Counted from the first letter of the stretch, positions 53,605-63,990 are shown. The stretch: DNA of 64,000 nucleotides from an uncultured delta proteobacterium (GCA_947259215.1 CAMYLJ010000017.1:67878-131877); one strand, 5' to 3'. Made by a program: numbers and translations. The notes: generated from the sequence alone by a model not told the origin.

Positions 53605-54153
53605 ATGGGAGATTCCGTGGGCCCCCGCTCTGCGTTCGTCGGCCTCGCTCTGGCGGCCCTGGCTCTGGGGCTTGGATGCGCCACGGCCGCCAAGCCCGAC
53701 GGGATGGTGGCGACCCGGGTCGTTCCCGCGCAGGGCGCCGCCGAGACCGTCAGCATCCGCGTCTGCGGGGGGCGCGCCACCTTCCCCCTGGGCCGCTCGC
53801 AGATCTCGAACGACGGACTCTACGAGGCGGTGGCGCGCTCGCTAGCGGAGTCGGGCCTGCTGCGCCCGGTCTACGACGCCGTGAGCGACTACCACCTGGA
53901 CGTCTGCATCGCGTCCGTGGACCAGCCCCATTGGGCCTTCCCCATGACGGTGGAGCTGGTGACCGACTGGGCCCTCACGCCCAAGGACTGGAGCTCGCCG
54001 CTCTGGGAGGAGACCCTCCACGTGCGTCACAAGGAGCCCTTCGAGCGCGAGTTCTTCGGGATCAAGCGCCTGCGGCTGGCCACCGAGGGCGCGGCCCGGG
54101 AGACGATCGGCGCTGCGCTGGAGGAGATCGGCCGCCAGCTCGACGAGCGCTAG
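53605..54153 (+). CDS. Lipoprotein (182 aa), unknown function
   Basis: Lipobox LGLGC. GC3-rich, with no recognised family. Confidence 0.65.
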   Translation: MGDSVGPRSAFVGLALAALALGLGCATAAKPDGMVATRVVPAQGAAETVSIRVCGGRATFPLGRSQISNDGLYEAVARSLAESGLLRPVYDAVSDYHLDVCIASVDQPHWAFPMTVELVTDWALTPKDWSSPLWEETLHVRHKEPFEREFFGIKRLRLATEGAARETIGAALEEIGRQLDER

Positions 54154-55340
54154 GCCGCCACCCGCACGGGCATCTTCTGGATGCCGGTGATGAAGTTCGA
54201 CGCCCGTCGGGGGAGCGGCGCGTCGCTCACCAGCTCCAGGTCCGGCAGCCCGCGCACCAGCTCCTCGAACATCACCCGCAGCTCGAGCCGCGCCAGGCTG
54301 GCGCCCAGGCAGAAGTGGGTGCCGTAGCCGCCGAAGGCCAGGTGGTCGTTGGGCTCGCGGGTCACGTCGAAGCGGAAGGGATCGTCGAAGACCGTCTCGT
54401 CGCGGTTGCCCGAGGGGTACAGCAGCAGCAGCTTGTCGCCCTCGCGGATCTTCTGGCCCCGGACCTCCACGTCTTCCAGGGCGGTGCGGTTCATGTTCTG
54501 GATGGGCGAGACCCAGCGCAGCATCTCCTCCACCGCCGTCGGGATGCGCCCGGGGTCGTCCAGCAGCAGGCGCAGCTGGTCCGGGTTGCGCAGGAGCTGC
54601 TCCATGCCGCCCGAGATCACGTGGCGCGTCGTCTCGTCGCCGCCCACCAGGATCAGGAGCGACTCGTGCAGGAGCGCCTCTTCGTTAAGGCCCTCGCCGT
54701 CGATCCGTGCGTGCACGAGCACGCTCAGCAGGTCGTCCGTCGGGTTCGTGCGTCGCTCGGCGGCGGTCCGGGTGTGGTAGGCGTGGTACTCGCCGAAGGC
54801 GCGGGCGGCGCGCGCCATCACCTCCGGGTCGGCGGTGGCGGAGGTGCCGTCGATCAGGTCGTCGGACCAGCGCAGCAGCATGTCGTGGTCCTCGGGTGCC
54901 ACGCCGAGCATGTCGCCGATCACGCTCATCGGCAGCGGCGCCGCCACGTCCGCCACGAAGTCGAAGGCGCCCCGGGCCCGGGCGGCCTCGATCAGGTCCG
55001 TGCAGATGGCGCGGATGCGCGGCTCGTGGTCGGCCACGCGGCGCGGTGTGAAGCCGCGGTTCACGAGGTTCCGCCGCTTCATGTGCTCCGGGTCGTCCAT
55101 GTTCACCATGGACGGGATCGGGGGAGAGTCCGGGCGCTGGCCGTGGCGGTTGCAGAAGACTTCGGGCCGCTTCGAGAGCTGCTGGATGTCCGCGTGCAGC
55201 GTGATCCCCCAGACCCCGCTCTTCTCGTCCTGATAGACCGGCGCGTTCGCCCGCATCCAGGCGAAGTGGGAGTGCGGATCGTCGGCGTAGAAACGGCCGT
55301 CGAGGAGATCGATCTCGGGCTTTCGCGGGTGATCGGACAT
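54150..55340 (-). CDS. Cytochrome P450
   Basis: Heme loop FGGYGTHFCLGASLA, EEMLRW and GGDETT. SD GGAGGAG. Confidence 0.9.
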   Translation of the reverse strand: MSDHPRKPEIDLLDGRFYADDPHSHFAWMRANAPVYQDEKSGVWGITLHADIQQLSKRPEVFCNRHGQRPDSPPIPSMVNMDDPEHMKRRNLVNRGFTPRRVADHEPRIRAICTDLIEAARARGAFDFVADVAAPLPMSVIGDMLGVAPEDHDMLLRWSDDLIDGTSATADPEVMARAARAFGEYHAYHTRTAAERRTNPTDDLLSVLVHARIDGEGLNEEALLHESLLILVGGDETTRHVISGGMEQLLRNPDQLRLLLDDPGRIPTAVEEMLRWVSPIQNMNRTALEDVEVRGQKIREGDKLLLLYPSGNRDETVFDDPFRFDVTREPNDHLAFGGYGTHFCLGASLARLELRVMFEELVRGLPDLELVSDAPLPRRASNFITGIQKMPVRVAA

Positions 55341-55497
55341 GACTCCTCCGGGTGCGCAGGGTGCCAGAGGAGCGGTTCGCCGTCGAGCGCGCTTGCGGGA
55401 GCGCTCCGCCGCGGTCTCGATGTGCTTTTGAAGAGTTCTTGAGAGCGCGGCACGCGGGCGTGCCCGATGCTGGCGGCACCCCGTCGCGGAAAGCGGC

Positions 55498-56274
55498 ATG
55501 AGCCCCGAGACGCGCATCGCGATCCAGCTCGTATTCTGGTCGGCCGCCTTCTGGGTGGGCCTGGCTGGCTTCCATCGTCGCGCCGGCGCCCGCGCGCTTC
55601 CGCGCCAGGCCGCAGCCCTCGCGTTGGGAGCGCTGGCCTCCCATGCGGGCGGGCGCCTCCTGCAGCCCTGGACCGCGGCCGCCGGCCCGAGCGTGCTCTT
55701 CGTTCCGCTCGGCGTCCTGCTGCTGGCGCCCCTCCGCACGGGCGAGCGGCGCGCCTTCCTGCCGGCCGGCCTCGCTGCGTTGCCCCCCGCGCTGGCGGTG
55801 GCCCGGCTCGGATGTCTGGCGGGCGGCTGCTGCGGCGCACCCGTGGCGCCGGCCCTCGGCGCGAGCGCGCTGCTGGCGCTGAGTGCGCTCGTCGCGCGCT
55901 TGCCCGAGGCGTGCATTCCCCCGACGGTGCTGGCGGGTGTCGCCGCCGTGCGCGCCGCGTCCGAGCCCCTGCGGCCCGTCGCCGTCTCCGGTCCCGCGTC
56001 GCTTTCCCCGGCCGTGGTCGCCACGGCCTGGATCGTCGCCGCCGCCGCGCCCTGGGCGCGCGCGGGTGGTCCTCGCCCCGCCCGATCGAGGATTCGTCGT
56101 GAACGCAAGAAGCTGGAGGGCTGTAGAAGGTTCGATTCTGGGGATGGCGCTGGCCGCGCTGGTGGCCGGGACGTGTCAGCCGGCGCAGCCGCTGGCGCCG
56201 CTGGCGGGAGTCGTCGAATACCGCGCGCCGGGCCTGGTGCGGCTGCCGGGAGGCCTCTACGACGTGGCGGCTGA
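55498..56274 (+). CDS. Polytopic membrane protein, possibly Lgt-like (prolipoprotein diacylglyceryl transferase family)
   Basis: It has 5-6 hydrophobic helices and GC3-rich codons. The loop ARLGCLAGGCCGAP recalls the G-C-x-x-G-C-C-x-G loop of distant Lgt-like proteins. The last ~60 codons are Arg/Gly-rich and overlap the RHS start region. Confidence 0.45.
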   Translation: MSPETRIAIQLVFWSAAFWVGLAGFHRRAGARALPRQAAALALGALASHAGGRLLQPWTAAAGPSVLFVPLGVLLLAPLRTGERRAFLPAGLAALPPALAVARLGCLAGGCCGAPVAPALGASALLALSALVARLPEACIPPTVLAGVAAVRAASEPLRPVAVSGPASLSPAVVATAWIVAAAAPWARAGGPRPARSRIRRERKKLEGCRRFDSGDGAGRAGGRDVSAGAAAGAAGGSRRIPRAGPGAAAGRPLRRGG

Positions 56275-59200
56275 GAACCTGATCCTGCGGCGCACGGACC
56301 TGGCCATCGACACGCGCCTCGGCGGCTACCGCCTGGACGCCACCTGGAACGACGCCGACGGGGGCTGGCACTGGGCCTTCGAGATGCACTACGACGGTGC
56401 GCTCTTCGTGGACGATACCGGTGCGCGTCACGACCTGGCGGACCTCGCAGCGGGCGATGCGATCCCCGGCACCTGGTGGGTGCGGATCGACGCCGCGAGT
56501 CTCAAGACCAAGGGCGGCCTCGTGCACGAGTTCGACCCGGCCGGACGCCTGGCGGCGGTGCGCTGGGCCAGCGCCAGCTACCCGCGCGTGCGCTACGTCG
56601 GCGCCCTCGTCGCGGGGGCGACCCGCACCGTGGCGGTCGAGCAGTGCACGTCCGCCAGCGCCTGCGCGGCGATCTTCGACCTTGCGTACGACGGCGCCGG
56701 GCGGCTGGTGGCCGTCGACGACCGGGCCGGCCGGCGTGCCGAGTTCGCCTGGGACGCCGCGGGCCAGCTCGCGAGCGCGCGGGACGGGCTCGACGTCGCC
56801 CGGGGCTGGCCCGGGCAGCGCTACACCTACGCGGCCGGGAAGCTCGCCAGCGTCACGAACTCCGAGGGGGAGCGCATCGAGTACCTGCGGACGTCGGGTC
56901 AGCTCGTGGCGCGCCAGATCGGCGCGGGCGATCCCGAGCACCGGATCCGGCGCCTGCCCCCCGTCGGGCCCCTCCTGCACACGGAGGCCGTCGATCCCCT
57001 GGGCCAGCGCACCCTCTACCGCTTCGACCGCGAGCGGCGGATCCGGGAGGTGGAGCGCGAAGCGGTGGGCGAGCTCACGCGCTTCGTGTGGGCGGGCCGC
57101 CGGATCGCGGAATGGCATCGGCCCGATGGGACGATCGTGCTGCGCAGCTACCTCGGCGACGACGTGACGCTCGAGACGCGGCCCTCCGGCAACCAGCTCG
57201 TGTACCAGTACGCCCCGGACGCGGTGGACCGCGGCGCGCCGCTGCGGCGCCCGCTGGCGCGCCTCGACGACAGCCTGGGGCTGGTGGAGCGGCGCGCCTA
57301 CGATGCCAGCGGTCGCCTCGTGGAGGTCGCCAACGGCGCGGACGAGGTCACGCGCTTCAGCTACGCCGCCGACCAGAGCATCGCCACGCGAACCTCCCCA
57401 GCCGGCATCGTCACGAGCTTCTCCCAGGTGGGCGAGCACGGACACCCGACGCACATCAGCACAGACGGCAGCACCCGCGTGCGCGTCTACGACGCGGTCG
57501 GAAACCTGCTGGAGTTCGGCGACGGCGAGGTGGACCTGGGCGGGGTGACGGCCCGCAGCTACGACGAGGACCGCAACGTCATGGGACTGATGCTGGCCGG
57601 CCAGTGGTCCTTCGAGCAGCTGCCTGCCGAGAGCCTGCTGGTGGAGCACCGCAGCGACGGTCAGGTCGAGCGGATCCTGCGCCCGGGGGGTGCGGACGTG
57701 GAGCACGTTCGCGACGCGCTGGGTCGGATCGTCGAGAGCCGGGAGCGCAGCGACGGCGTCTGGCGCACGACCCGCTTCGAGCTCGACGCGCTGGGGCGTG
57801 TCAGCGCGGTCGAGAAGCCGAACGGCATGCGCGAAGAGCGCGATCTCGACGCGCTGGGGCGGCTGGTGGAGCGCCGCCTGGGCCGCGGCTCGCCGCTCCA
57901 GGTGGAGACGAGCGCTTATCTCACCTGGCAGGACGGGCGCGTGGTGCGCGTGGACCACGACGCCGATCCGGACCCCGAAGAGCTCTTCTACGACGCGGCG
58001 GGCCGCATCGCGACGGTGCAGTACCCCGACGGTGAGATCCTGAGCCTCGCCTGGGACGAGCGCAACCGGCTGGTGGCGGCGGTGCCCGCCGACCCGGCGA
58101 CCGGGTTCGCGCGCAGCCTGGGCTTCGGCTACGACGGAGCGGATCGAGAGGTGGCCGTCGTGGATGAGGGAACGCCCGTGGTGACGCGCAGCTACGCCGA
58201 CGGCCGGCTGGTGGAGACCCGCAGCGGCAACGGCGTGGTGCGGAGCTACGGCTACGACCCGGACAGCGGGGGCTATCGCAGCGCCGTGGCGGTCGACGCC
58301 GCGGGAAACGTCATCGAGACCAGCGACGTCGGTTCGGACTGCCCGCCCTTCTTCGGAATGGGCGGCTGCTACGAGATGCACACCGAGAGCTTCGGGGCGC
58401 TCGCGCAGCTGACGCACGAGGAGTACTACTTCGGGCCCGACGAGGTGTACCCGGTGGCGCCCCCGTCCCTCGCGGGTCAGCGCATCGCCGTCGACTACAG
58501 CGGCAACGTCTTCGACTACGACGCCAAGAGCAACGTGACGACAAGACTGCTCGGCGGGGCGCCCGCGACCTTCGTCTACGACCCGGAGGGCACGCGGCTC
58601 CTGCGGATCGAGGACGACAGCGGGGGCGTCGTGCACGACTACGTCTACGACGAGGCGGGCTACGTGGTGCGCCGGGACGGGGTCGATCTCGTCTGGGACG
58701 GCGGCGGCCGCATCGCGGCCCTCGGATCGATGGCGAGCTTCACGTGGGATGCGCTGGATCGCCCGCGGGTCTCGAGCGTGGCCGGCATCGCCGTGCATCG
58801 CCGCTTCGGGGGGATCCTGGAGACCGATGCGCTCGGCCTGGCCCGGGCGCTCGATCTCGGCGAGGTGCGCATCGATCTATCCAGCGGGACGCGGCGCTAC
58901 CGCCATCTGGACCCGCGCGGGAACGTGAAGCTCGAGACCGACGACGCGGGGCAGGTGGTCGCCCACGTCGGCTACTCGACCTACGGCGTGGAGCAGGAGT
59001 GGGGCCAGGTCCTGGAGGGACCGCGCTTCGCCCGCGGCCGCGAGGTCCTCGACGGGCTCGTGCTGCTGGGACAGCGCCTCTACGACCCCGACGCCGCGCG
59101 CTTCCTGGCGCCGGACCCGATCCCCCAGCTCGTGAACGCCCACGCCTACACCCTGGGCAACCCGCTCTGGTACTGGGACCCGACGGGCTTCGAGGGCACC

Positions 59201-59674
59201 CTGAACGGACTGACGGCGCAGCAGTGGGCAGCCTCGGCTGCCTTCACCAGCGCCTGGGCGGCGGCCAACCGGAACGTGCCCGTGGCCGTCGGCTTTGGCC
59301 TGCTCGCCGCGACGTTCGAGGTCATCGCGGCGGCCGGCGGATTTCCGTGGGAGGGAGACCGTCTGAGCTGGGGGGGCCAGCCGCCGGGCGAGGAGCCGCC
59401 GGCGGCGCCGGACCCGAGTCCGGAAGATCCCCCCCCTCCCGCGGTGTTGCAGTCCGAAGGCCCCTCGCCATTCAAGGCGTACGCCGGCCCTCCGCGCGCC
59501 GTCGGCTCCGCCGAGGCTCCGTCGTACTGCCACGGCACCCTGGGCGAGAGCGGAGTCGATCTCAACGCGAGGGTACTGGCCCCAGTGGTCGTCACGAACG
59601 CGTTGCTCGCGCTGGTTGCGCTGCTCGTCGGTCGGCAGGACCGAGGGCGCCGATGTCCGGACAGGAGGAGGTGA
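56099..59674 (+). CDS. RHS/YD-repeat protein with a signal/lipobox-like N-terminus and a membrane-helix C-terminal region
   Basis: Many YD repeats (YDGAGRLVAVDD, YDASGRLVEVAN, FYDAAGRIATVQYPDG, YVYDEAGYVVRRDG). The core ends RLYDPDAARFLAPDPI...WYWDPTGF (59177-59191). The start is GTG 56099 or ATG 56144 (MALAALVAGTC). Confidence 0.85.
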   Translation: MNARSWRAVEGSILGMALAALVAGTCQPAQPLAPLAGVVEYRAPGLVRLPGGLYDVAAENLILRRTDLAIDTRLGGYRLDATWNDADGGWHWAFEMHYDGALFVDDTGARHDLADLAAGDAIPGTWWVRIDAASLKTKGGLVHEFDPAGRLAAVRWASASYPRVRYVGALVAGATRTVAVEQCTSASACAAIFDLAYDGAGRLVAVDDRAGRRAEFAWDAAGQLASARDGLDVARGWPGQRYTYAAGKLASVTNSEGERIEYLRTSGQLVARQIGAGDPEHRIRRLPPVGPLLHTEAVDPLGQRTLYRFDRERRIREVEREAVGELTRFVWAGRRIAEWHRPDGTIVLRSYLGDDVTLETRPSGNQLVYQYAPDAVDRGAPLRRPLARLDDSLGLVERRAYDASGRLVEVANGADEVTRFSYAADQSIATRTSPAGIVTSFSQVGEHGHPTHISTDGSTRVRVYDAVGNLLEFGDGEVDLGGVTARSYDEDRNVMGLMLAGQWSFEQLPAESLLVEHRSDGQVERILRPGGADVEHVRDALGRIVESRERSDGVWRTTRFELDALGRVSAVEKPNGMREERDLDALGRLVERRLGRGSPLQVETSAYLTWQDGRVVRVDHDADPDPEELFYDAAGRIATVQYPDGEILSLAWDERNRLVAAVPADPATGFARSLGFGYDGADREVAVVDEGTPVVTRSYADGRLVETRSGNGVVRSYGYDPDSGGYRSAVAVDAAGNVIETSDVGSDCPPFFGMGGCYEMHTESFGALAQLTHEEYYFGPDEVYPVAPPSLAGQRIAVDYSGNVFDYDAKSNVTTRLLGGAPATFVYDPEGTRLLRIEDDSGGVVHDYVYDEAGYVVRRDGVDLVWDGGGRIAALGSMASFTWDALDRPRVSSVAGIAVHRRFGGILETDALGLARALDLGEVRIDLSSGTRRYRHLDPRGNVKLETDDAGQVVAHVGYSTYGVEQEWGQVLEGPRFARGREVLDGLVLLGQRLYDPDAARFLAPDPIPQLVNAHAYTLGNPLWYWDPTGFEGTLNGLTAQQWAASAAFTSAWAAANRNVPVAVGFGLLAATFEVIAAAGGFPWEGDRLSWGGQPPGEEPPAAPDPSPEDPPPPAVLQSEGPSPFKAYAGPPRAVGSAEAPSYCHGTLGESGVDLNARVLAPVVVTNALLALVALLVGRQDRGRRCPDRRR

Positions 59675-59677
59675 AGC

Positions 59678-59971
59678 ATGCGGGAGCCGGTCGAACCCGT
59701 CACGAGCGTGGAGAGCAGGTCGGAGCGTTGGGTCCTCGGCGCAGGTCGCCGTTCGCGCGGTCGCAGCGCGACGATCTCGATCGCGATCCTCGCCGCCGTG
59801 AGCGGACTCATGCTCGTCATCGCGGTCGTCCAGCGCGACGCGCTGTCGCTCGTGATGTCTGCCCTGTTCATGCTGATCGGCGTGCTCACCTTCGAACGTC
59901 GCGTGTTCGACCGCATCGTCCGCCGCCAGGCCGCGGAGATCGCCCACCTCCGGGGCGGGGGAGGTGACTGA
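59678..59971 (+). CDS. Small 2-TM membrane protein (97 aa) in the immunity-gene position
   Basis: ATG lies 3 nt after the RHS stop, behind AGGAGGAGG. TM helices are ISIAILAAVSGLMLVIAVV and LVMSALFMLIGVLTF. Confidence 0.7.
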   Translation: MREPVEPVTSVESRSERWVLGAGRRSRGRSATISIAILAAVSGLMLVIAVVQRDALSLVMSALFMLIGVLTFERRVFDRIVRRQAAEIAHLRGGGGD

Positions 59972-60560
59972 GCTCCAGCGGGCAACGCTGCTGCTGCTGG
60001 CGGTGCAGACGATCCTGGTCGCCGGCCGGCTGGCGGCCGACGCGTCGGGGATCTCGAGCGCCGTCGCGGCCGCGAGCGGCGCCGGGCTCCTCGCCGCGAC
60101 GCGCCGCCGGGGCCCGCGACTCACCGGGCCCGGTGGCGTGCGGGTGGCCGCCCTCGGGGTGGCGGCAGGGCTGGCGGGGTTCCCGGTCTGCGTCGCCGCG
60201 ATCGCAGCGGTGGGGCTTGGGCTCGGCCTGCGGCTCCCGGCTCCCGAGGCGCTGGCGCACCCCCCTCCGGCTGTCTGGCTGGCGGCCCTCGGGATCGCGC
60301 CCTTCCTGGAGGAGGCGCTATTCCGGGAGCGGCTCCTGCTGGCCCTGCGGGGCCCGCTCGGCCCCGGGTCCGCCGTCCTGATCCAGGGCGCGTGCTTCGC
60401 CGCCCTCCACGGGGGGCACGCCTGGAGCCTGCTCGGGACGTTCCTGGTGGGCCTGCTCCTCGGCGCTGTGGCGCTCGCCACGCGCTCGCTGGCCCTCTGC
60501 GCCGGCCTGCACGCAGGGCTCAACGCGGCCGCCTGGGCACTTCTCCAGCAGTTTCGCTGA
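59964..60560 (+). CDS. CPBP-family (CAAX/Rce1-like, Abi) glutamic intramembrane protease
   Basis: Motifs EEALFRE, FAALHGGH and HAGLNAA occur in the canonical order. The GTG start overlaps the previous ORF by 8 nt. Confidence 0.8.
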   Translation: MTELQRATLLLLAVQTILVAGRLAADASGISSAVAAASGAGLLAATRRRGPRLTGPGGVRVAALGVAAGLAGFPVCVAAIAAVGLGLGLRLPAPEALAHPPPAVWLAALGIAPFLEEALFRERLLLALRGPLGPGSAVLIQGACFAALHGGHAWSLLGTFLVGLLLGAVALATRSLALCAGLHAGLNAAAWALLQQFR

Positions 60561-60669
60561 GTTCGGGTTCTCAGAGTGGGTTCGTCGGTGGTTTTCCCGA
60601 CGCTTCGGTGACGGAAGGGGTTAGAATTGCTGTGCTTTCGAATCCCTGGGCCGCTGGAGGTTGCCGCTG

Positions 60670-63600
60670 ATGACGTCTCGATTCACTCGCCCCGCACTCT
60701 TCCTCATCCTGTTCGGCCTCCTCGGTCTCGGCGCGAATTGTGGGCCCAACGTGACGTGGGTCTTCCCCGTCACCGGGAGCGCGGTCACGACCTTCCGCTT
60801 CCAGGCCGAGCTGACCGTGGGCGACGCCGACCTCGACCCCGCCAGCGCCGAAGTGATCCTCAACGGCGTCGCCGTGCCCTTCACGCTGGCCGGCGGCTCG
60901 ATCCTGGTCTCGATCGACCCGGGCCCCCCGCTGCTCGAGCAGAACGAGCTCGTCGCCCGCGTGCCCTTCCAGACGAACGGCGCGATCACCGCGACCACCG
61001 TCTTCAGCTACGAGCCCCCGGGCAAAGCGCGCGCCTTCGAGATCAGCGACCCCGCGGATCTCCTGACCGGCCCGCTGGCCCACAACCGGATCGGGGACTA
61101 CCAGCTCACCAATGACGTGGCGCGCTTCGTCGTGCAGCGCGCCCTCGTGCGCGACCTGCACAGCGTGGGCCAATTCGGAGGCAACCTGATCGACGCCGAG
61201 CTGCGGGCGAACCCCGGCTCCGACAACTTCTTCGAGATGGCGCCGTCGGTCAACATCGAGACGGTCGTGAACCCCACCAGCATCACGATCCTGAACGACG
61301 GTGCGGACGGGACGGCGGCCATCGTCGAGGCCTGCGGCCCGGACGACCTGATCGACTACATCAACGCCTCGACCCAGGTGGCTCAGTTCGGGGTCACGCT
61401 GCCGGACGGCATCGACGACCAGGACTACGACGTCACCGGCTGCACCCAGTACGTGCTCGAGCCCCGGATGCCCGGCGAGCCCGGCAATCGGGTGTCCATC
61501 ACCACCACGATCACCAACCACGAGACGCAGTTCGTGGACCTGTTTCCGGGTGACTACCTGAACGGCATGGGAGAGCTCGAGCAGTACACGCGCCTCGATC
61601 CCACGAGCAGCATGTTCTTCGACGCCGGCATCGGCGAGCTGACGGCCATTCCCGGGCTGCGTTCCTTCAGCTACTTCGGCTTCGGTCAGGCCACGGGTGT
61701 CTCCTACGGCCGCATCGGGCTGCCGGTCCCCACGTCGCCCTTCGCGGACTCGAGCTTCAGCACCTCCGGCGTCTCCTTCGTGCTGACGGCCAACTCCGTC
61801 ACCAACGTGCTGCTTCCTGGAGATGATCCGCCGACCCTGTCCATCCCGCCTGGCGGGAGCGAGGGCTTCAGCAGGGTCTTCGTGGTGGGCGACGGCGACC
61901 TGGCCGACGTGGTGGAGGCCCAGCTCGACGTCTCCGGGACTCCCCAGGGCACCGTGTCGGGCTGCGTGTTCGTCGATCCCGCCAGTCCGACGCCGGCCCC
62001 CGGCGCCCGGGTGACGGTGGGCGAGCTCAACGCGGGCCAGATCGGAGAGGTCGTGTCCGGCTGGGTGGCCCGTTCCGACGGCTGCTTCTCCGGGAACGTG
62101 CCCGTCGGCACCTGGGGCCTGTCCGCGGCCCGCGACGGAACACCCTACGAGGGAGGAGCCACCACCCCGGTGGTCCACACCATCGTCGTCAGCGACGGCG
62201 GCAGCGTCGCCCAGGACGTGATCCTGGACGCCACGGGCGGCCTCCAGGTGGGCGTCACGGACGGCAGCGGCAGCCCGATCCCCGCCCGCGTCACGGTCGT
62301 GGGCTTCGACCCGAGCCCGGAGCCGGTCATCACCTTCAACTTCCTGGGCTTCTTCATCGACGACGGCGGCACCTTCAACGACATCACCAAGGATCCGCTG
62401 CCGTACGGCATCGCCGCGGCCAAGTACACCGGCGCGGACGGCTCCGTCGCCTTCGACCTCGAGCCCGGCGACTACCAGGTGCTGGTCTCCCGGGGTACGG
62501 AGTACTCGATCTACGAGCAGCTGGTGACGGTCGCGGCGAACACCGTCACCCCGGTGACTGCCCGCATCGCCCGGGTCCTCGACACGCCGGGCTTCGTCTC
62601 GTCGGACTTCCACGTCCACTCGATCAACAGCCCGGACTCCCGCATCAGCCTGCGGAACCGGGTCGAGGGGTTCGCGGGCGAGGGCGTGGAGAACTTCGTC
62701 TCCACGGACCACGACGCCCGCACGGATCCCGACGCGACGATCGAGGAGGAGGATCTGGTGGCCCATCTGGCCGGCACCATCGGCGAGGAGATCACCACCT
62801 TCGACACCGGTCACTACAACGGCTACCCGCTCGGGATCGAGCCGCTGCGTCCCTCCCGCGGCTCCACCGACTGGGGGCGGGCTGAGCTGCCGGGGCGGGA
62901 CTTCCCCTCCTACGGGGCGTACATCCGCACGCCGGCGGAGATCCACGCCGAGGTGCTGAACCAGCTCGACGAGGACGGGCTGCCGCTGAACACGTCGCCC
63001 GACGTCGTGGTCCAGATCAACCACATCGGCAGCCACTTCGTGCCCTTGAAGATCGACACCTCGCTCGAGCCGCCCCGCTCGTTCCTCGGCCCGGGCGAGC
63101 CGGAGGCGTTCCGGCTGGATCCCGCGGTGAGCAACTTCTTCCACCTGTTCCCGGCGCTCGAGCTGTGGAACGGCATGGACCGTGGCCACCAGGCCGAGTT
63201 CACGGACCAGCGGATCGGGATCTGGATGAACCTCCTGAACCAGGGCATGCCCAGCTCGTTCATCGCCGACACCGATACCCACACGTTCCTCAACCTGCGG
63301 CAAGCCGGCGCCCGCACCTGGACGGCCTCGCCGACGGATGCGCCCCGCGCGATCGATTCCGACGACGTCGGCGCTTCGGTGCTGGCGGGCCGCGCGACCG
63401 GAGGCCAGGGGATCTACCTGCAGGCGGCGCTGCGCGAGGCCGACGCGCCCGACAATCTCGCGGACCTCTCGTGGCAGGGCTCCACCACCCTCGTCACCGC
63501 CGGCGACGGCAACGTGGAGCTGGTGATCGACATCCAGGCGCCGCTGTGGGCGGAGTTCGACACCGTGGAGATCTACGCCAACGCCGCCACCCGCGTGGCG

Positions 63601-63990
63601 GGCACGAACGACGGGATCCCGGTGCAATTCAGCGCCGACCCGACGCAGACCCTGGTGGCGGGCAGCGACTTCAGCCTGCCGGCGCCCGTGGTGGTCGATC
63701 CGAGCGTGCCCGGCGCCGAGCGGCGCGAGCTGCAGCTCGTGGTGCCCTTCGCGCTCAGCCAGGACACCTGGTTCGTGGTGCTCGTGAAGGGCAGCGACGG
63801 GGTGTCGCAGCCCATGTTCCCCGTCTATGCCAGCGACCTCGACCCGGCGTCGAACCCGACCCTGGCCGACCTGCTGGACGGGAACCTGGGCCAGGGAGGC
63901 ACCATGGCCCTCGCTGCGACCAACGCCTTGTTTGCCGACGTCGACGGCAACCCGGGCTTCGACCCGCCGGGCGTGCAGCTCGCCCCCTGA
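60670..63990 (+). CDS. Large lipoprotein with a PHP/CehA-like metal-dependent phosphoesterase module
   Basis: Lipobox LGLGANC. DFHVHSINSPDS ... VSTDHD ... INHIG ... ADTDTH give the His/Asp metal-ligand pattern of PHP-type domains. Ig/CarboxypepD_reg-like stretches are present (GTVSGCVFVD..., GTWGLSAARDG). SD CTGGAGG, and a TAGAAT box at 60622-60627. Confidence 0.7.
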   Translation: MTSRFTRPALFLILFGLLGLGANCGPNVTWVFPVTGSAVTTFRFQAELTVGDADLDPASAEVILNGVAVPFTLAGGSILVSIDPGPPLLEQNELVARVPFQTNGAITATTVFSYEPPGKARAFEISDPADLLTGPLAHNRIGDYQLTNDVARFVVQRALVRDLHSVGQFGGNLIDAELRANPGSDNFFEMAPSVNIETVVNPTSITILNDGADGTAAIVEACGPDDLIDYINASTQVAQFGVTLPDGIDDQDYDVTGCTQYVLEPRMPGEPGNRVSITTTITNHETQFVDLFPGDYLNGMGELEQYTRLDPTSSMFFDAGIGELTAIPGLRSFSYFGFGQATGVSYGRIGLPVPTSPFADSSFSTSGVSFVLTANSVTNVLLPGDDPPTLSIPPGGSEGFSRVFVVGDGDLADVVEAQLDVSGTPQGTVSGCVFVDPASPTPAPGARVTVGELNAGQIGEVVSGWVARSDGCFSGNVPVGTWGLSAARDGTPYEGGATTPVVHTIVVSDGGSVAQDVILDATGGLQVGVTDGSGSPIPARVTVVGFDPSPEPVITFNFLGFFIDDGGTFNDITKDPLPYGIAAAKYTGADGSVAFDLEPGDYQVLVSRGTEYSIYEQLVTVAANTVTPVTARIARVLDTPGFVSSDFHVHSINSPDSRISLRNRVEGFAGEGVENFVSTDHDARTDPDATIEEEDLVAHLAGTIGEEITTFDTGHYNGYPLGIEPLRPSRGSTDWGRAELPGRDFPSYGAYIRTPAEIHAEVLNQLDEDGLPLNTSPDVVVQINHIGSHFVPLKIDTSLEPPRSFLGPGEPEAFRLDPAVSNFFHLFPALELWNGMDRGHQAEFTDQRIGIWMNLLNQGMPSSFIADTDTHTFLNLRQAGARTWTASPTDAPRAIDSDDVGASVLAGRATGGQGIYLQAALREADAPDNLADLSWQGSTTLVTAGDGNVELVIDIQAPLWAEFDTVEIYANAATRVAGTNDGIPVQFSADPTQTLVAGSDFSLPAPVVVDPSVPGAERRELQLVVPFALSQDTWFVVLVKGSDGVSQPMFPVYASDLDPASNPTLADLLDGNLGQGGTMALAATNALFADVDGNPGFDPPGVQLAP

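Follow-up and report, generated by a model that had tools for sequence, protein, structure and literature searches.

An operon built around an RHS protein with a Cys-containing tail

We analyzed a 64,000-nucleotide stretch of DNA from an uncultured delta proteobacterium (GCA_947259215.1, CAMYLJ010000017.1:67878-131877), referred to here as the window, in which all positions are counted from the first letter. At 55498-60560, 4 tightly packed genes on the plus strand encode, in this order, a paralogue of the prolipoprotein diacylglyceryl transferase family (Lgt-like), a protein with an RHS/YD shell, a small protein with 2 transmembrane (TM) segments, and a glutamic intramembrane protease of the CPBP/Rce1-like type. 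The RHS protein ends in a Cys-containing tail that is conserved among its relatives and confined to this RHS family or its fragments, making it a one-client signal, and it is with this tail alone that genes for the CPBP protease, for the Lgt-like protein and for a third membrane protein family, here called TMX, are linked.

The RHS gene (56099-59674, +) lies in an open frame spanning 55883-59674, the translated end of which equals the tail quoted in an earlier, model-generated note on this DNA (the original prediction). The G+C content of third codon positions (GC3) in this frame is 0.82-0.88 through the tail, which supports the reading frame; the window as a whole has a G+C content of 72.7%. 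The product matches Pfam RHS_repeat (E = 6.9e-35) and NCBIfam Rhs_assc_core (43.7 bits, cut-off 32.5), and so has the RHS/YD repeats and the Rhs-associated core with a DPxG motif that are found in RHS polymorphic toxins; a variable globular toxin domain with an immunity gene immediately downstream was not found. The NCBI-called product P0017 is identical to the window protein and starts at the ATG at 56144. We consider the GTG at 56099 the probable true start, because it agrees with the 86%-identical ortholog P0018, and this start would give the protein an N-terminal lipoprotein-type signal (VNARSWRAVEGSILGMALAALVAGTC, 56099-56176, +), with a lipobox that is degenerate in the window. A homolog search with the full-length protein returned 619 relatives, the best 120 of which are uniform in length (1109-1273 aa) and share 41-52% identity with the window protein; source names, present for a few, point to Myxococcota or Deltaproteobacteria metagenome-assembled genomes. 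A lipobox-like x-x-[G/A/S]-C follows a hydrophobic run in 76 of 109 relatives, LLLGC being the commonest form.

The core ends in an autoprotease-type motif (YDPDAARFLAPDP...WYWDPTGF, 58841-59191, +; 173 bits against a core-end hidden Markov model, HMM), its last residues reading ...RLYDPDAARFLAPDP...NPLWYWDPTGF up to 59191, and an alignment of 30 full-length sequences (A2) shows no variation at the D and G of DPxG. The 161 residues past the core consist of an Ala/Gly-rich hydrophobic segment directly behind it (VPVAVGFGLLAATFEVIAAAGGF, 59276-59344, +, hydropathy 1.94), a linker of low complexity that is by composition rich in Pro, Gly and Glu (59345-59509, +), and the tail, and this region matched neither a toxin domain nor an NCBIfam sorting model. 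In the family as a whole, a median of 107 residues, with 21% Gly and 17% Ala, separates the core end from the tail Cys, which leaves no room for a globular toxin; one or two hydrophobic segments follow the core in 90 of 97 relatives. A word-based homolog search with the C-terminal 195 residues found nothing among 5.8 billion sequences; it was the full-length query that revealed the family.

The tail itself starts with a signature motif (AEAPSYCHGTLG, 59510-59545, +, delimited in the tail alignment A3) holding the invariant Cys (codon 59528-59530), continues into a TM helix of 20 residues (VLAPVVVTNALLALVALLVG, 59573-59632, +), the central Asn of which corresponds to a mid-helix Q/N in the family, and closes with a predicted cytoplasmic Arg-rich cluster (RQDRGRRCPDRRR, 59633-59671, +) followed directly by the stop codon. 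The original prediction had described a Cys, a TM helix and a terminal Arg cluster at these places, and the coordinates that we derived anew agree.

Behind the RHS gene, a gap of 3 nt leads to the gene for the small 2-TM protein (59678-59971, +, 97 aa), which is kept 3' of RHS in relatives, and an overlap of 8 nt leads from there into the CPBP gene (59964-60560, +, 198 aa; Pfam Rce1-like, E = 1.7e-16). The protease gene thus lies two genes 3' of RHS in a tightly coupled arrangement, as had been predicted, with its catalytic motifs intact. The Lgt-like gene upstream (55498-56274, +), which the prediction had overlooked, has a homologous core at 55534-56082 and a frame that stays open to 56274, where it overlaps the start of RHS by 176 nt (56099-56274) through an Arg/Gly-rich extension without homology; in the orthologous contig L087, the corresponding genes overlap by only 28 nt. 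That contig has the same order, with a cytochrome P450 gene on the minus strand, a 223-aa gene at the position of the Lgt-like gene, RHS, a 97-aa gene and the start of the next gene. In the window, a minus-strand open reading frame (ORF) of 652 codons (54150-56108) is likewise a P450 gene that runs antisense over the Lgt-like gene. GC3 fails to separate these two ORFs, because their third codon positions coincide, and homology settled the strand question: the minus strand carries P450 as far as about 55440, and the plus strand the Lgt-like gene. Since the Pfam match sits in the part nearest 54150, the real P450 gene probably covers about 54150-55440, the remainder of the ORF being a spurious extension. 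A scan of 55000-61000 for promoters and terminators found none.

The tail is a conserved signal with a single client

Tail positions were counted over 111 full-length relatives that bear the Cys-type tail. The Cys is present in all 111 (100%), as it is in alignments A2 and A3, and is preceded by G/S/A at -1 (86%) and followed by S/A at +1 (94%), Pro at +2 (94%), Leu at +5 (79%) and Pro at +9 (74%). The family pattern is therefore [G/S/A]-C-[S/A]-P-x2-L-x3-P, a TM helix with a central Q/N, often LLPLQLLLG, and then RRRR; a second Cys near the first never occurs in these 111 members. Counted from the Cys, the basic cluster follows most often at a distance of 31 residues in family members; in the window, where the spacer between Cys and helix contains ESGVDLNAR, this distance is 35. 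The window tail (S-Y-C-H-G-T-L-G) aligns with the family on the Cys and the mid-helix Asn and, judged by this alignment, is a diverged copy of the conserved signal. The distance of about 14 residues between Cys and helix, which the original prediction had counted as a weakness, is none, because relatives keep this spacing as a family trait.

The arrangement of signature motif, TM helix and Arg-rich cluster at the extreme C-terminus is that of a sorting signal. The comparison with PEP-CTERM/MYXO-CTERM-type domains that had been drawn for it holds for the architecture and the invariant Cys, and fails at the level of named models: neither the window tail nor 40 family tails matched an NCBIfam sorting-domain model in a search that detected a PEP-CTERM tail as positive control. 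Specifically, none of the 40 matched TIGR03901 (MYXO-CTERM), and a single one touched a myxosortase-dependent model (E = 0.12). Considering that the architecture fits and the models miss, we regard the tail as a member of this class by architecture, and not of a named domain.

For the distribution of the tail, the tail profile (A3) was searched exhaustively with HMMER against 1.84 billion representative proteins (E <= 1e-3). Among the 94 matches, all those with at least 300 aa fit the RHS-family model over most of their length, and the shorter ones resemble C-terminal fragments from short contigs. Within the window, tblastn with the tail and a scan of the ends of GC3-supported ORFs found no second carrier. 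The original prediction had named the absence of other tail-bearing proteins as a finding that would speak against a sorting signal; carriers outside the RHS family are indeed absent, and we hold this to be compatible with a sorting signal because the one-client JDVT-CTERM/MrtJ system, with its adjacent protease, sets a precedent.

CPBP, Lgt-like and TMX genes accompany the Cys-type tail

An alignment scan with RHS over 185,579 species genomes gave 67 family loci (L005-L071), together with 13 distant RHS loci that were used as an outgroup. The 3' ends of the RHS genes were anchored with the core-end HMM before tail typing, which distinguished type A (the Cys type), types B, C and D, and others; in other words, RHS orthologs exchange the Cys-type tail for other tails. 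Type B tails are rich in Gly, with GGGFGGF/W at the end (L016, L021, L023, L024). Type C has CGL(L/T)GIE(P/F) followed by a helix and an RR/Arg cluster, and is thus a second Cys-containing tripartite tail (L029, L032, L037, L039, L045, L048, L071). Type D reads IKQL.I.V...GGFSFDFAL.LGGL.L (L008, L014, L064). None of the types B, C and D matched an NCBIfam sorting model or had a CPBP, Lgt-like or TMX neighbor, and the outgroup loci L074-L084 have globular C-termini and no genes of this module.

Blind clustering of the neighboring ORFs yielded, as its largest cluster, CPBP ORFs joined with Lgt-like ORFs, and inspection of this cluster exposed the 2 partner families, Lgt-like and TMX. Associations were counted on non-redundant loci, 37 of type A and 23 of other types. 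A CPBP gene lies next to RHS in 24 of 37 type A loci versus 0 of 23 others (p = 1e-7), an Lgt-like gene in 19 of 37 versus 0 of 23 (p = 1e-5), and a TMX gene in 21 of 37 versus 0 of 23 (p = 2.5e-6), all by Fisher tests, which ignore phylogeny. Where type A loci have at least 5 kb on both sides, CPBP is found in 15 of 19, and the CPBP-subfamily HMM matches type A loci only. In a neighbor-joining tree computed from the shell without the tail, a rough one that has no support values, non-A tails occur at 7 or more separate points among type A tails and the module is absent each time; the association therefore does not stem from a single clade.

A reverse scan started from the protease: run over metagenome contigs, the CPBP alignment found 80 loci, 71 of which reach 95 bits or more with the subfamily HMM. 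Of these 71 CPBP-subfamily loci, 56 share their contig, mostly a very short one, with an RHS-family, Lgt-like or TMX gene, versus 0 of the 9 more distant CPBP loci that score lower. On 5 more short contigs, a Cys-type tail that is cut off at the contig start directly precedes CPBP. The original prediction had looked to the co-occurrence of protease and tail, which is found in both directions, and had feared for its case if RHS orthologs kept the CPBP neighbor and lost the tail: those that keep CPBP keep the tail, and those with other tails are without CPBP.

The tightest unit in these contigs is CPBP-TMX-Lgt-like, with RHS adjacent in about half of the longer ones. Gene order varies: we observed Lgt, CPBP, TMX, RHS; RHS, TMX, Lgt, CPBP; CPBP, a gap, RHS, TMX, Lgt; and Lgt, RHS, a small protein, CPBP, TMX; CPBP may also be divergently transcribed. 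Such variability is more in keeping with functional partners than with a toxin-immunity cassette.

The candidate enzymes

Across 26 members of the CPBP subfamily, the window protein among them, the motifs EExxxR, FAxxH and HxGxN do not vary; the window protein thus has the CPBP/Rce1-like domain with EExxxR, FxxxH and HxxxN/D motifs that is typical of Mrt enzymes. An AlphaFold2 model of the window protein (predicted local distance difference test, pLDDT, 90.3) found its best PDB folds in SpdC (6u0o_A, TM score 0.52) and MmRce1 (4cad, TM score 0.50), with weak Foldseek E-values (0.07 and 1.6, respectively), and points to a CPBP fold. The closest function-specific NCBIfam models are MrtJ, MrtS, Mrt_core, MrtP, MrtC, MroQ and pepcterm_CAAX, the subfamily reaching 24-37 bits against MrtJ (cut-off 75), 18-33 bits against MrtS (cut-off 130) and 29 bits against Mrt_core (cut-off 100). 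A generic ABC-permease/CPBP fusion model often outscores the Mrt models, and it too stays below its cut-off. Since all NCBIfam scores fall below cut-off, we treat these proteins as a distinct CPBP subfamily. The concern that the protease might be a generic Abi member was not borne out, as its nearest function-specific models are of the Mrt type and it travels with RHS, Lgt-like and TMX genes. We propose the CPBP protein as the tail-processing enzyme.

The window Lgt-like protein belongs to the Lgt-like neighbor family by jackhmmer (E = 8.6e-46). Pfam LGT (PF01790) is matched by 12 of 17 family members at E <= 0.1 (best E = 4e-13), and 2 members scanned individually reached 33.6 and 38.8 bits versus a gathering score of 24.9; the family profile also finds E. 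coli Lgt (5azb, E = 0.0047). The window copy retains every invariant residue of the family alignment (A4), which has 2 invariant blocks, A-R-L-G-C...C-C and G-x-G-x-x-R-x-x-x-E-P-x-R. In the alignment with E. coli Lgt (5azb), the latter block falls on GYGAFRIIVEFFR, a stretch that we take to hold the essential R239 and E243. Assuming that R143 and R239 are the catalytic Arg residues of that enzyme, the near-invariant Arg of the former block can be matched to R143, by inspection only. Against the NCBIfam equivalogs for housekeeping Lgt, the family scores at most 28 bits (cut-offs 334-428), so that these proteins are to be seen as a diverged paralogue of about 200 aa rather than as the housekeeping enzyme.

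TMX is a multi-TM family of about 330 aa, rich in His, Glu and Asp, usually encoded beside or between the CPBP and Lgt-like genes (for example L055:10226-11212, L019:14580-15566 and L017:6438-7412). Its invariant motifs are GYGHL, S.WH..END, LYH, VH and SP..YLFWS.LHV.QT (alignment A6), and it matched nothing in Pfam, NCBIfam or PDB sequences. A role as third enzyme in the maturation pathway proposed below is possible.

The small 2-TM protein occurs only in the window's sub-clade, always directly 3' of the RHS stop codon (L005:13582-13842, L007:12655-12906, L009:8407-8682, L017:6158-6424, L062:1543-1794, and the 97-aa protein of L087). It has a conserved C-terminal ERRxFxxIxxRxxxExxxLR stretch and no Pfam or NCBIfam family match. 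In L007, L017 and L062 it is followed by TMX, and there is no CPBP gene on the available flank.

Other genes at RHS loci

Some further neighbors were seen in the course of these comparisons. In L085 and L086, members of the 'GAGCSPAALTALP' clade, a protein of 257-266 aa, soluble in its N-terminal part and multi-TM in its C-terminal part, is encoded 3' of RHS with an overlap of 4 nt (L085:13462-14262, L086:13504-14277), and no CPBP or LGT gene is found within 10 kb of these loci. We considered this protein as a rhomboid-like replacement protease and rejected it, as the candidate Ser and His are unconserved between the loci and no Pfam family matches.

Directly upstream of RHS in about 17 family loci is a gene for a conserved protein of about 270 aa with a PEP-CTERM tail (...RFVPEPxxxLLLxxGxxGLxxLxRRR), for example L001:6228-7046 (-), L020:8219-9946, L029:8839-9879, L035:5322-6746 and about 13 more. 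It occurs together with tail types A, C and other and is absent from the window; its tail suggests an exosortase-anchored surface partner of RHS.

A far more distant RHS protein (27% identity; L073:3-1730) ends in a Cys tail (GGCDAISTSPSAVATLLALLPFLVLLLGRGARSTARR) and has an Lgt-like gene immediately 3' (L073:1778-2365), which hints that the pairing extends beyond the RHS family studied here. In the window, the next gene downstream of the operon (60661-63990, +) encodes a 1109-aa protein with a signal-like N-terminus and without a tripartite tail, which matches CarboxypepD_reg only weakly (27.9 bits; cut-off 32.3).

A proposed C-terminal maturation pathway

Cys-containing tripartite C-terminal signals have been assigned to CPBP enzymes before, in line with what the original prediction had stated: Haft proposed that CPBP proteases termed 'Mrt' process such signals (bioRxiv 10.1101/2023.06.07.544157), and Guo, Haft and Wall (2025) demonstrated such cleavage for MrtX acting on a MYXO-CTERM (PMC11980579). 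In these works, lipidation of the Cys is assumed to precede cleavage and is ascribed to 'an unknown enzyme', Lgt being named as the leading candidate (PMC11980579). RHS proteins are mentioned in neither of these 2 works, and in Zhang et al. (2012), CPBP comes up solely as a distant relative of PrsW. Our full-text literature search found no paper that joins an Lgt paralogue, a CPBP protein and an RHS protein.

On balance, we think it probable, with some reserve, that the operon is a dedicated, CAAX-like C-terminal maturation system for a single client, the RHS lipoprotein, in which the Lgt-like protein lipidates the tail Cys and the CPBP protease removes the TM/Arg anchor. In the course of events that we infer, from lipidation and cleavage and their order to the final location of the protein, the RHS precursor would be exported by Sec through its N-terminal lipoprotein-type signal, and the C-terminal helix would tether it to the inner membrane with the Arg cluster in the cytoplasm. 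The Lgt paralogue would then add a diacylglyceryl group to the invariant tail Cys, which stands in a [G/S/A]-C-[S/A] context that echoes lipobox positions -1 and +2. Next, CPBP would cut distal to the Cys and free the helix together with the Arg cluster. The product would be an RHS shell with a C-terminal lipid anchor in addition to its N-terminal one; alternatively, the lipid might end up on an autoproteolytically released C-terminal fragment of about 110 residues, considering that the conserved autoprotease motif would split the shell from the lipid-bearing fragment.

A more far-reaching version would make the system a bacterial counterpart of CAAX processing with 3 enzymes: the Lgt paralogue working in reversed topology, CPBP, and, in most relatives, TMX for a third step, on an RHS cage that is lipid-anchored at both ends or that has the lipidated fragment of about 110 residues as its cargo. 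We put this forward tentatively, at somewhat less than an even chance. If true, it would make Lgt-family enzymes the missing lipidator for all Cys-type C-terminal signals, including MYXO-CTERM.

Several observations weigh against the maturation pathway. Lipidation and cleavage of the tail are predictions read from sequence. The window itself is not a typical member: its S-Y-C-H-G motif departs from the lipobox-like G-C-S-P of the family, its Lgt-like copy does not match Pfam LGT at E <= 0.1, and TMX is not detectable in its 64 kb. The CPBP proteins stay below the curated cut-off of every specific Mrt model (MrtX/C/P, Mrt_core, MrtJ, MrtS, MrtA), and the hydrophobic segments behind the core complicate the membrane topology. 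The tail is found on one protein family only, so that portability between unrelated proteins cannot be shown. Linkage is also incomplete. About one third of type A loci are without an adjacent CPBP gene, and in a large clade (L066, L085, L086), 10 kb around RHS are free of module genes. Conversely, L091, L095, L129 (Lgt-like and CPBP only) and L145 have the module without an RHS-family gene or tail-bearing ORF within 5-10 kb, from which we conclude that module and client are unlinked in some genomes. Lastly, a C-terminus that co-varies with neighboring genes is the pattern expected of toxin-immunity pairs as well.

This last point makes toxin-immunity the main rival, since it predicts the same co-variation of C-terminus and neighbors. 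Here, the autoproteolysed hydrophobic C-terminus would be a membrane-active toxin, and the small 2-TM protein, an Abi-type CPBP protein and TMX would confer immunity. RHS proteins are the classic polymorphic toxins and the autoprotease motif at the core end is conserved; a small membrane protein is encoded directly 3' of RHS in the window's clade; and CPBP/Abi proteins are found downstream of bacteriocin genes, where they are proposed immunity factors (10.1101/2023.06.07.544157). However, the C-terminal region, with a median of 147 aa, is rich in Gly and Ala, low in complexity and matches no toxin domain, while the invariant Cys and the Arg cluster at the extreme C-terminus are traits of a sorting signal. 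In addition, the proteins are uniform in length and begin with a lipoprotein-type signal, the accessory genes are often upstream or divergent rather than immediately downstream, and a transferase of the Lgt family has no obvious role in immunity. We therefore consider a toxin-immunity system unlikely.

The tail could also be a lineage variant of MYXO-CTERM that is cut by a housekeeping myxosortase (MrtX, MrtC or MrtP), the CPBP/Lgt-like module acting elsewhere or assisting. The organisms are Myxococcota, in which MYXO-CTERM is universal (PMC11980579); MYXO-CTERM is highly divergent and needs lineage-specific models (10.1101/2023.06.07.544157); and several RHS loci with a Cys tail are without the module within 10 kb. 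While MYXO-CTERM frequently has a GCGC motif, placed near a helix free of Pro or charged residues (10.1101/2023.06.07.544157), the tail described here has a single Cys with Pro at +2, a spacer of about 13 residues and Pro/Gln in the helix, and is missed by TIGR03901. Together with the exclusive tracking of the Cys-type tail by the module, this leaves such a variant rather improbable.

We hold an equally low opinion of a tail that serves as a permanent, uncleaved anchor, with Lgt-like, CPBP and TMX co-regulated for another role such as the N-terminal lipobox or shell assembly: cleavage is indeed a deduction, and some CPBP members are non-proteolytic, including SpdC, the scaffold that is the best structural match, but the catalytic Glu, His and Asn motifs are invariant, as is the Cys in its context of small residues, and RHS orthologs with other tails have N-terminal lipoboxes yet lack the module.

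Relation to known systems and significance

The proposed maturation system shares much with JDVT-CTERM/MrtJ (Haft 2023/2024), which also combines a tripartite signal, a single invariant Cys and conserved residues within the TM helix with about one client per genome and a CPBP protease encoded beside it; MrtJ is, moreover, the function-specific NCBIfam model that most consistently matches the present CPBP subfamily, at scores below its cut-off. The signals differ, JDVT-CTERM having DP nine residues past the Cys where the present tail has G-C-[S/A]-P...L...P and the mid-helix Q/N, and so do the clients, which are always RHS shells here. JDVT-CTERM has reportedly never been found in Myxococcota (PMC11980579), where the present tail occurs, and neither Lgt-like nor TMX genes are in the neighbor-gene clusters reported for the JDVT system (10.1101/2023.06.07.544157).

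With MYXO-CTERM/MrtX, the system shares the phylum, a disordered linker before the tag and the proposed course of Sec export, TM/Arg tether, Lgt-like lipidation of the Cys and subsequent CPBP cleavage. MYXO-CTERM, however, has dozens of clients, a housekeeping enzyme with a gene unlinked to them and no genetically linked lipidating enzyme, whereas an Lgt paralogue stands in the operon here.

The parallel with eukaryotic and archaeal CAAX processing (prenyltransferase, Rce1, ICMT) is the proposed lipidation of a Cys, followed by a CPBP-fold protease that trims the remainder, and the window CPBP model superposes on MmRce1, as given above. Unlike in CAAX processing, the lipid would come from a diacylglyceryl transferase of the Lgt type rather than from a prenyltransferase, and about 45 residues including a TM helix would be removed instead of 3; any third step would possibly be taken by TMX. 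From RHS/Tc-toxin C polymorphic toxins, with which it has the YD/RHS repeats, the Rhs-associated core and the DPxG autoprotease motif in common, the client differs in lacking a recognizable toxin domain, in its short low-complexity C-terminus with a sorting-type tail, and in its lipoprotein-type N-terminus and uniform length.

Our comparisons thus support a signal, a CPBP subfamily, an RHS-shell client and a linked Lgt paralogue that are new within the Mrt/Cys-CTERM class. CPBP sorting of Cys signals was proposed in 2023 and first shown experimentally in 2025, with the lipidating enzyme explicitly unidentified and Lgt a guess (PMC11980579). Here, across dozens of Myxococcota genomes, a diverged Lgt paralogue stands in firm genetic linkage with a CPBP protease and its single client. 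It may be the missing enzyme that lipidates this class of signals, and its linkage to protease and client makes the lipidation step directly testable in a compact system of 3 or 4 genes. Finally, there is a large family of RHS shells seemingly without a toxin domain. They appear to be proteins of the cell envelope whose C-terminal anchors can be exchanged, and they extend the range of functions to be considered for RHS cages.

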